NCBI GenBank assembly: GCA_000004985.1
Contig: GG738853.1
Direction: 5' to 3' (one strand)
DNA: 64,000 bases
DNA from: Naegleria gruberi
Taxonomy: Eukaryota
Shown here: piece by piece, positions 24,246-25,190 of the stretch
Numbering within the stretch: the stretch's first letter is position 1
How the letters are laid out: each line of letters opens with the position of its first letter
Made by a program: the position numbers and the translations under genes
The notes under the pieces: model-generated
What the model was told of the DNA's origin: nothing
The model's input: only the letters and a program-made list of their open reading frames with translations
Databases searched by the model: none

Positions 24246-25190
24246 TCAAAAGATGCTCTTTCTATGAATGATATTGAATCCACTCTCTTCATATTCCTCT
24301 AAGGTTATACGCATCGATGGGAAGGTTGATAATTGGGAGAAAATACTACCACCAAGCCACGCAGTGTACTTTCTATCTGGTGGTGCTATTATTCGAATGT
24401 TCATTGAAGAATGAGATAATTCCCTCAATTCATTATCCAATCGTTCTACTATTCCATTGAACAATGTCGATCCTCCTGAAAGAATAATATTCGAATACAA
24501 TTCCTTTCTAATATCTAAATCCGACTTTCTAATAGAAGTGAAAATATTTTCATGAATTCCACCAACTTCCATTCCAATAAGATTTGGTTGAAATAATATC
24601 TCACTAGTTTTGTATCTTTCACTTCCAAGTGCAATTATATTTCCATCCGGTAATTCATATGAAATTTCTGATATTGTTTCTTCCAAAAAATTACTAGCAA
24701 CACAACCAGCGAAGCCTGGACCGAGGGGAAACCCTTGACCCGGGACGAGCCAGCTGTTTTTCAATATTGATTACCCGCATTAAGCGGGAAACCCTCGCAA
24801 GAGGAACCCCATACCTCAGAGACCCAAACGATTCATTCGTTTAGGCTCGAATCGAGTTCATAATGGCAAACGGATGGATAGCCAGTAGGTGGTGCAAACC
24901 AACGAACGCTTAATTAAATATATAATCCCATATCTTTTCCATGTGATCAAAGTCAGTAATCAAACCACGATCAATTGGATATTTGAAAACATTCACACCT
25001 CTCCTTCCCAATGCAATATCTCCAACGAATGTGTCAATGGAGCCCATTCCAACCATGATGGTGGATACTTTTTGTCATCCAGTAACTGTGGGAAAGACCA
25101 CACATGGAGCATCATCAATAAAACCAGCTTTCATGAGAGAGGAACCATTATCAATGATGAGAGGTGGATGTTCAGACATTTTTTTTTTGT
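24246..25190 (-). pseudogene. Actin pseudogene (nonsense mutation, internal deletion/insertion)
   Basis: The minus strand 25190..24913 encodes the actin N-terminus ([88 protein letters not shown]). An in-frame TGA (plus 25063-25065) sits where actin has Arg in VGRPRH (CGA->TGA), and the fragment then hits TAA. 24703..24246 encodes actin residues about 225-375 (YELPDGN..GGSTLFNGIVERL..IIAPPDRKYTAWLGGSIFSQLSTF..HRKSIF*). About 130 central residues are missing and replaced by a non-actin GC-rich segment. Confidence 0.8.
24704..24912 (+). other. GC-rich, hairpin-dense ~210-bp element replacing the middle of the actin pseudogene (candidate structured ncRNA or mobile-element remnant)
   Basis: Local GC content is far above surroundings. 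Plus-strand hairpins: CCAG-cgaagc-CTGG, AGGG-GAAA-CCCT, CCCGC-attaa-GCGGG, CCTC-GCAA-GAGG (GNRA loops), AAACGA-ttcat-TCGTTT, CTCG-aat-CGAG. GAGTTCATAATGGCAAACGGATGG loosely resembles the RNase P/MRP CR-V region. Identity unknown. Confidence 0.35.

Follow-up and report, generated by a model that had tools for sequence, protein, structure and literature searches.

Short pieces of abundant non-chromosomal DNA can be inserted into chromosomes at breaks by end joining, as in the NUMTs and NUPTs, non-functional inserts from organelle genomes that join with little or no homology, carry no target-site duplication and often accompany a deletion of the target. In yeast, the capture of mitochondrial DNA at chromosomal double-strand breaks was reportedly observed by Ricchetti et al. 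and by Yu and Gabriel, both in 1999. Ty1 cDNA is likewise said to have been captured at breaks (the work of Moore and Haber in 1996), and large templated insertions reportedly arise under Dna2 deficiency in yeast, as Yu et al. described in 2018. In Naegleria the rRNA genes are carried only on the circular extrachromosomal rDNA element (CERE), present at ~3,000-5,000 copies (PMC5805870, PMC10586121, PMC11008152), and it has been stated repeatedly that the chromosomes of this genus contain no rDNA (PMC5805870, PMC10586121).

Here we describe an actin pseudogene of Naegleria gruberi in which the middle of the gene has been replaced by a 206-bp fragment of CERE spacer. The locus appears to share with NUMTs and NUPTs the properties named above, and it differs from them in the source of the inserted DNA, which is a nuclear (nucleolar) circular rDNA plasmid and not an organelle genome; the insert is thus a NUMT-like class of event with an unusual donor. 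With filler capture and with the rDNA "orphons" it has in common that a piece of rDNA lies outside the rDNA, joined apparently by imperfect microhomology on one side and bluntly on the other, and that the data are compatible with copy-and-paste synthesis. It differs from these systems in that Naegleria has no chromosomal rDNA array, so that the donor is the episome or its transcript, and in having arisen once and naturally in a wild-type lineage, without experimental induction. The closest sequence relative is the 18S-proximal spacer of the Naegleria CERE (N. gruberi entries AB298288 and MG699123; PMC5805870), which the insert matches at 100% over 206 bp in environmental contigs and whose strand-specific structure it shares, whereas the insert is only a fragment, without promoter or 18S gene, and it lies in a chromosome in antisense orientation within an actin-like gene.

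The window, by which we mean the whole 64-kb stretch of DNA that was analysed, is nuclear DNA of N. gruberi strain NEG-M with a GC content of 33.4%, and it encodes exact copies of the NEG-M proteins EFC47674, EFC47824, EFC47678 and EFC47813, which all belong to a single scaffold of 695,587 bp. Its other open reading frames are ordinary eukaryotic genes, among them those for topoisomerase II, leucine-rich repeat (LRR) proteins and a SAP-domain protein, as identified with Pfam. A plus-strand ORF of 2,221 aa (7114-13779) is uninterrupted and has no Pfam match at E<=0.001. At least ten tandem 72-nt units at 22509-23457 reflect the LRR_6 repeats encoded by the ORF at 22986-23777, and a related LRR gene lies at 19714-21192. 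Several Pol III genes surround the actin locus, as the initial annotation had recognised when it placed the locus in a Pol III island. The 5S rRNA and tRNA genes are real, and their proximity to the locus appears to be incidental. Two 5S rRNA genes (23873-23991 and 27074-27192) are both on the plus strand, with a spacing of 3,201 bp; over 153 nt, short flanks included, they are 95% identical, and the sequence in between is not duplicated. A tRNA-Lys(CTT) gene (25302-25374, minus strand) is separated by only ~123 bp from the actin-like ATG downstream of it and has the same orientation as the actin, and together with nearby genes for tRNA-Pro (21283-21354) and tRNA-Leu (21808-21888) it makes up a loose cluster.

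The amino-terminal part of the actin-like gene occupies 24913..25179 on the minus strand and comprises codons 1-89, equivalent to actin residues ~5-92. It matches the Pfam Actin family (PF00022) with an E value of 8.6e-16, and a phmmer search of PDB actins (E ~3e-24) aligned residues 4-88 of the query to chain residues 7-92; against alpha-actin the alignment spans residues ~5-90. The clean amino terminus that had been noted on this strand was therefore reproduced, with the end at 24913 as first given. Its start required adjustment, in that the ATG is at 25179 and the earlier value of 25190 had included an 11-nt leader. Codon 35 is an in-frame TGA (25075..25077) that translation and alignment place opposite Arg28, the first arginine of the conserved GRPRH (the pseudogene reads "tvtgXqkv" where alpha-actin has "sivgRprh"), in agreement with the earlier assignment of the stop to the arginine of VGRPRH. 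A selenocysteine reading of this TGA has no basis and was rejected.

The further suggestion that the stop arose from CGA by deamination at a CpG found no support. CpG is depleted in the window, but in 14 of its ORFs arginine is encoded by AGA 170 times and by CGA 22 times, and since AGA is so dominant, a CGA ancestor is only one possibility. The depletion itself is strong: over the whole window the observed-to-expected ratio is 0.46 for CpG, whereas TpG+CpA is in excess (1.32) and GpC is near normal (0.83). Such a combination of CpG depletion and TpG/CpA excess would fit the methylation and deamination of cytosines in the nuclear DNA of N. gruberi.

The carboxy-terminal part of the gene lies at 24246..24704 on the minus strand and encodes 152 aa plus a stop (CVASNFLEETISEISYELPDG...IHRKSIF*), equivalent to actin residues ~217-375. 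Its similarity to actin is strong (E 6e-49 against PF00022; E ~2e-51 against PDB actins, with ~65% identity to solved actins over residues ~237-375), and it contains neither internal stops nor frameshifts. This confirms the actin carboxy terminus first placed at 24703..24246, with the boundary now one nucleotide further out. The NCBI annotation covers only the last 145 aa of this fragment, as a "predicted protein, partial [Naegleria gruberi]" (P0006). A second short actin carboxy-terminal "predicted protein" of N. gruberi, P0007, is encoded on a contig of 1,617 bp; it has 158 aa, is 67% identical to P0006 and may be another truncated actin paralogue.

Between the two fragments ~124 central residues (~93-216, or ~372 bp of coding sequence) are absent, close to the first estimate of about 130, and the two pieces are in different frames. 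No trace of the missing middle was found anywhere in the 64-kb window by tblastn with a Willaertia actin fragment spanning that part, and an inverted or decayed remnant of it was rejected on this ground. A spliceosomal intron between the halves was also rejected; removing one would not restore the ~124 residues, and the halves do not share a frame. The locus combines significant homology to actin (PF00022) with disabling lesions, namely the in-frame TGA, the deletion of ~124 residues, a shift of frame from one half to the other and a junctional TAA, and these, together with the Pfam matches and the rDNA match presented below, uphold the initial view of an actin pseudogene in which structured, GC-rich sequence of foreign origin has taken the place of the middle. 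But for the one TGA and the lesions at the junctions, the reading frames of the two halves are open over 89 and 152 codons, and for this reason the paralogue was probably functional until lately.

The sequence that separates the actin pieces differs sharply from its surroundings. The ~209-bp block has a GC content of 51%, against 33.4% for the window, and it is the sole site in the 64-kb window where a stretch of 209 bp reaches at least 48% GC, which bears out the original remark on its composition. The folding described for the plus strand was reproduced as well: it forms at least six hairpins, GAAA and GCAA tetraloops included, with a minimum free energy of -66.5 kcal/mol and a z score of -3.31, and none of 200 shuffled sequences was as stable. 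The minus strand, with a z score of -1.19, is unremarkable.

These properties had led to the proposal that the block is a gene, or a fragment of one, for an RNA like that of RNase P, MRP or SRP, or alternatively a SINE or retroelement remnant. Significant plus-strand folding, GNRA loops and neighbouring Pol III genes would all suit an independent structured RNA gene, of a known or a novel type, or a SINE-type element. The RNase P and MRP RNAs (RF00009, RF00030) are superficially alike in their GC-rich hairpins and GNRA loops, and they differ from the block in that it has no covariance-model match to them. An Rfam search of the block matched no family, neither at the gathering threshold over the whole window nor at E<=10 with queries of 601 nt and 231 nt, and the same two queries gave no match at E<=10 to the RNase P, MRP or SRP families in particular. 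The only Rfam match reported at E<=10 was HIV_FS2 at 13 bits, which we regard as noise. A GIR1 or group I ribozyme fragment was also considered and set aside; Rfam was negative for the block although it detected GIR1 in two of the rDNA contigs described below (L003 and L004). Neither ARAGORN nor Rfam revealed any similarity to tRNA, 5S or 7SL RNA within the block. The string GAGUUCA..AUGGC, which we take to resemble loosely a segment of human H1 RNA, lies in rDNA spacer, and the 24-mer GAGTTCATAATGGCAAACGGATGG, earlier likened to the CR-V region of RNase P RNA, proved to be an invariant part of the Naegleria rDNA spacer.

Homologues of the block were all found in rDNA. Translating it in six frames and searching a protein collection, in which spurious ORFs had been called over homologous DNA, returned two matches, a Logan contig (L001) and a JGI metagenome contig (L002), both of them rDNA. 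A scan of metagenomes with the invariant 24-mer GAGTTCATAATGGCAAACGGATGG yielded three further contigs (L003, L004 and L005), again all rDNA; the same 24-mer had no match in collections of viral contigs or genome contigs, and blastn of the block against the PLSDB plasmids gave chance matches only. Positions 24706..24911 of the window are identical at 206 of 206 positions to L004 (VFQN01005947.1) and to L005 (Ga0164308_10428449). The block is 92.9% identical to L003, and 87% identical over 215 nt to L001 (2155-1945) and to L002 (4520-4730).

In all five contigs the homologous segment is the region 49-255 nt upstream of the 5' end of the 18S gene. Rfam places the start of the SSU rRNA 49-50 nt downstream of the segment in L001, L002, L003 and L005; in L001 the eukaryotic SSU rRNA runs from 1895 on the minus strand of the contig. 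By its position this part of the spacer is presumed to be 5' ETS. Captured rRNA had been listed among the possible origins of the block, and this holds to the extent that it derives from an rDNA unit; the sequence is spacer that immediately precedes the 18S gene and not mature rRNA.

The donor contigs have the organisation of Naegleria-type rDNA elements. The 13.4-kb unit L002 carries SSU (4780-6799), 5.8S (6833-6977) and LSU (7178-10632) genes, and L004, at 14.4 kb, is nearly a whole element, in which LSU, 5.8S and SSU genes are accompanied by a GIR1 ribozyme. Both combine the order SSU-5.8S-LSU with a 33-nt ITS1, measure 13-14 kb and carry an endonuclease-like ORF beyond the LSU gene, and published descriptions of the CERE match the contigs in ITS1, size, the GIR1 twin-ribozyme intron and the ORF beyond the LSU. 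The GIR1 lariat-capping ribozymes (L003 1326-1534 and L004 14046-14242, both on the minus strand, ~202 bits) indicate that the SSU genes of those two contigs contain twin-ribozyme group I introns; L002 is without such an intron. The ORF past the LSU gene of L002 (11275-12855, plus strand, 526 aa) has a weak His-Me/HNH endonuclease signature, in keeping with the homing-endonuclease-like ORF that the CERE of N. gruberi EGB is reported to carry.

Two further features of the spacer were seen in these contigs. A hairpin motif, GCAGCCYTTTGGGCTGC in the form GCAGCC(Y)TTTGGGCTGC, recurs in 3-5 copies within ~350 nt upstream of the conserved 18S-proximal block in all the Naegleria rDNA contigs (for example at L002 4140-4515 and L005 649-737, and on the minus strands of L004 and L001), and its last copy ends ~13 nt before the position that matches the start of the insert; the repeats may lie close to a Pol I promoter or belong to a terminator. 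In L002 to L005 the 49 nt that lead from the insert homologue to the 18S gene are invariant, as is GGCTCGAATCGAGTTCATAATGGCAAACGGATGGATAGCCAGTAG, in a spacer whose neighbouring sequence differs by up to 13%. Conservation of this kind makes them candidate processing sites or candidate docking sites for a snoRNA (U3).

The rDNA match accounts for what had made the block conspicuous. The plus strand of the window is the sense strand of the pre-rRNA, which explains why folding is strand-specific, and the same asymmetry recurs in the 87%-identical copy in L002 (z of -4.31 for the sense strand and -1.10 for the antisense strand), so that the hairpins are a genuine property of the presumed pre-rRNA spacer; this asymmetry and the high conservation of the segment lend indirect support to its transcription as part of pre-rRNA. 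Among four near-identical sequences no compensatory pairs were found in support of the hairpins; the available homologues are too alike for covariation to be informative. GC-richness and hairpins come from the pre-rRNA spacer and do not signal a ncRNA gene in its own right. Against an independent RNA gene or a SINE stands the colinearity of the whole block, the 24-mer included, with 18S-adjacent spacer in five contigs. Blastn found no second copy of the block in the 64-kb window, which has no other CERE-like sequence either, the external copies found are all in rDNA context, there is no target-site duplication, and the folding is fully accounted for by the spacer origin. On these results from the window and the five contigs, both readings are effectively excluded.

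The identity of the insert to its donor bears on the species from which it came. The rRNA cistrons of L004 and L002 are 96.7% identical and their 18S-proximal spacers only 86%, so that an insert identity of 100% suggests that the donor was of the same species or of one very close to it. From the two environmental contigs that match perfectly (L004 and L005) we infer that the donor was probably the host's own CERE. Against this, L004 has an SSU intron, and the published EGB cistron of 5,855 bp suggests that N. gruberi sensu stricto is without one.

The junctions of the insert (24706..24911, plus strand in the pre-rRNA sense, antisense to actin) are both abrupt and differ from each other. On the right, identity to the rDNA stops abruptly after 24911; a single base, 24912, matches neither the rDNA of L004 and L005 nor an obvious actin codon, and is followed by the codon for actin Asn89. 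Read on the minus strand, this base and the first two of the rDNA make up the TAA stop (24912..24910). No microhomology was detected at this junction in the comparison with L004 and L005. On the left, perfect rDNA identity begins at 24706, and the 12 nt before it (24694..24705) read on the minus strand as the actin codons Cys-Val-Ala-Ser, in the context CVASNF where the paralogue P0007 has CYVTTNF. This zone (CTAGCAACACAA in the window) nonetheless matches the rDNA upstream of the insert (CTACCACCACAG) at 9 of 12 positions, which by our own rough estimate has a chance of ~4e-4. The three mismatches crowd into 12 nt beside 206 perfect bases, and we therefore argue from the sequence comparison that the 12 nt are more plausibly an imperfect microhomology derived from the target than a mutated part of the insert. 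The flanks are collinear parts of the actin target (up to residue ~92 and from residue ~217), separated by the deletion; they share no direct repeat, and neither a target-site duplication nor an A-tail was found at the junctions.

We consider it likely, with a probability of about 0.82, that a CERE fragment was captured during the repair of a break in a recently inactivated actin paralogue, in an event like those that give rise to NUMTs. The mechanism that best suits the junctions would begin with a double-strand break in a divergent actin paralogue on an N. gruberi chromosome, the ends of which would have been resected or otherwise have lost ~372 bp of coding sequence (residues ~93-216). The plus-strand 3' end at ~24705 could then have annealed through the imperfect microhomology to a copy of the CERE and primed the synthesis of ~206 nt on that template, after which the extended end would have been joined to the other end of the break without homology. 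Simple end-joining capture of a CERE fragment would be an equivalent variant. With ~4,000 copies of the CERE in each nucleus, an abundant donor is at hand. The insertion was presumably recent, because it shows 0 mismatches in 206 bp and the actin frames are otherwise intact, and in its chromosomal setting the insert is most likely inert.

An unlikely alternative is that the insert passed through RNA, as a cDNA of an excised by-product of pre-rRNA processing (for example one extending from the transcription start to an A0-like cleavage site ~49 nt before the 18S) that was reverse-transcribed and ligated into the break. Because the fragment lies wholly within spacer that is presumably transcribed, the insert sequence is equally compatible with a donor of DNA or of RNA. 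Excised pieces of 5' ETS are abundant RNAs in other eukaryotes. The 5' end of the insert (24706) also falls within ~3 nt of the point at which conservation among Naegleria species begins, and, lying ~13 nt past the last GCAGCCYTTTGGGCTGC copy, it could mark the transcription start; yet both the start site and the A0 site are hypothetical in Naegleria. The insert has no poly(A) or other hallmark of retro-insertion, and the microhomology at its left end reaches into rDNA upstream of the exact-match block, as would be expected of priming on a longer DNA template. The ~4,000 plasmid copies in each nucleus are, moreover, a simpler source in the form of DNA. If the insert did arise from RNA, its ends would "fossilise" an unusually short Naegleria 5' ETS (~255 nt), which we think doubtful, and the locus would be a case of RNA-templated break repair in a heterolobosean. 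As a broader and similarly speculative extension of this reading, transfer from the CERE to the chromosomes may be recurrent in Naegleria.

It is very improbable that the insert is an artefact of cloning or assembly, in which the Sanger shotgun assembly wrongly fused CERE DNA to a chromosome that has no insert. Thousands of copies would make CERE DNA abundant in the libraries, the insert is 100% identical to rDNA, and no independent assembly of the locus was found. Such an artefact would, however, need two chimeric junctions only 206 bp apart, with no long shared k-mer at either, and flanks that happen to be collinear pieces of one gene in the same orientation with a clean deletion of 372 bp. 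The gene also carries an independent disabling TGA, and one Sanger read would cover the insert and both flanks.

Capture of a CERE fragment at a chromosomal break does not conflict with the confinement of Naegleria rRNA genes to the episome, because what was inserted is a fragment of non-coding spacer. In the literature searched, the coverage of which was incomplete, we found neither chromosomal CERE fragments nor this actin pseudogene described, and within that literature the locus is apparently the first record of a piece of the CERE embedded in the chromosomal DNA of Naegleria. It also removes a false lead, in that the block holds no hidden gene of the RNase P/MRP/SRP type. Captured fragments of this kind could confound PCR typing by rDNA spacers or the mapping of reads, and the perfectly kept insert provides a datable marker for the comparison of strains. 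The conserved, structured, 18S-proximal spacer to which the insert led us is itself a candidate region for pre-rRNA processing or U3 docking. The implication of the captured fragment is that break repair can carry sequence from the episome into the chromosomes, a route taken by mitochondrial DNA in other organisms.
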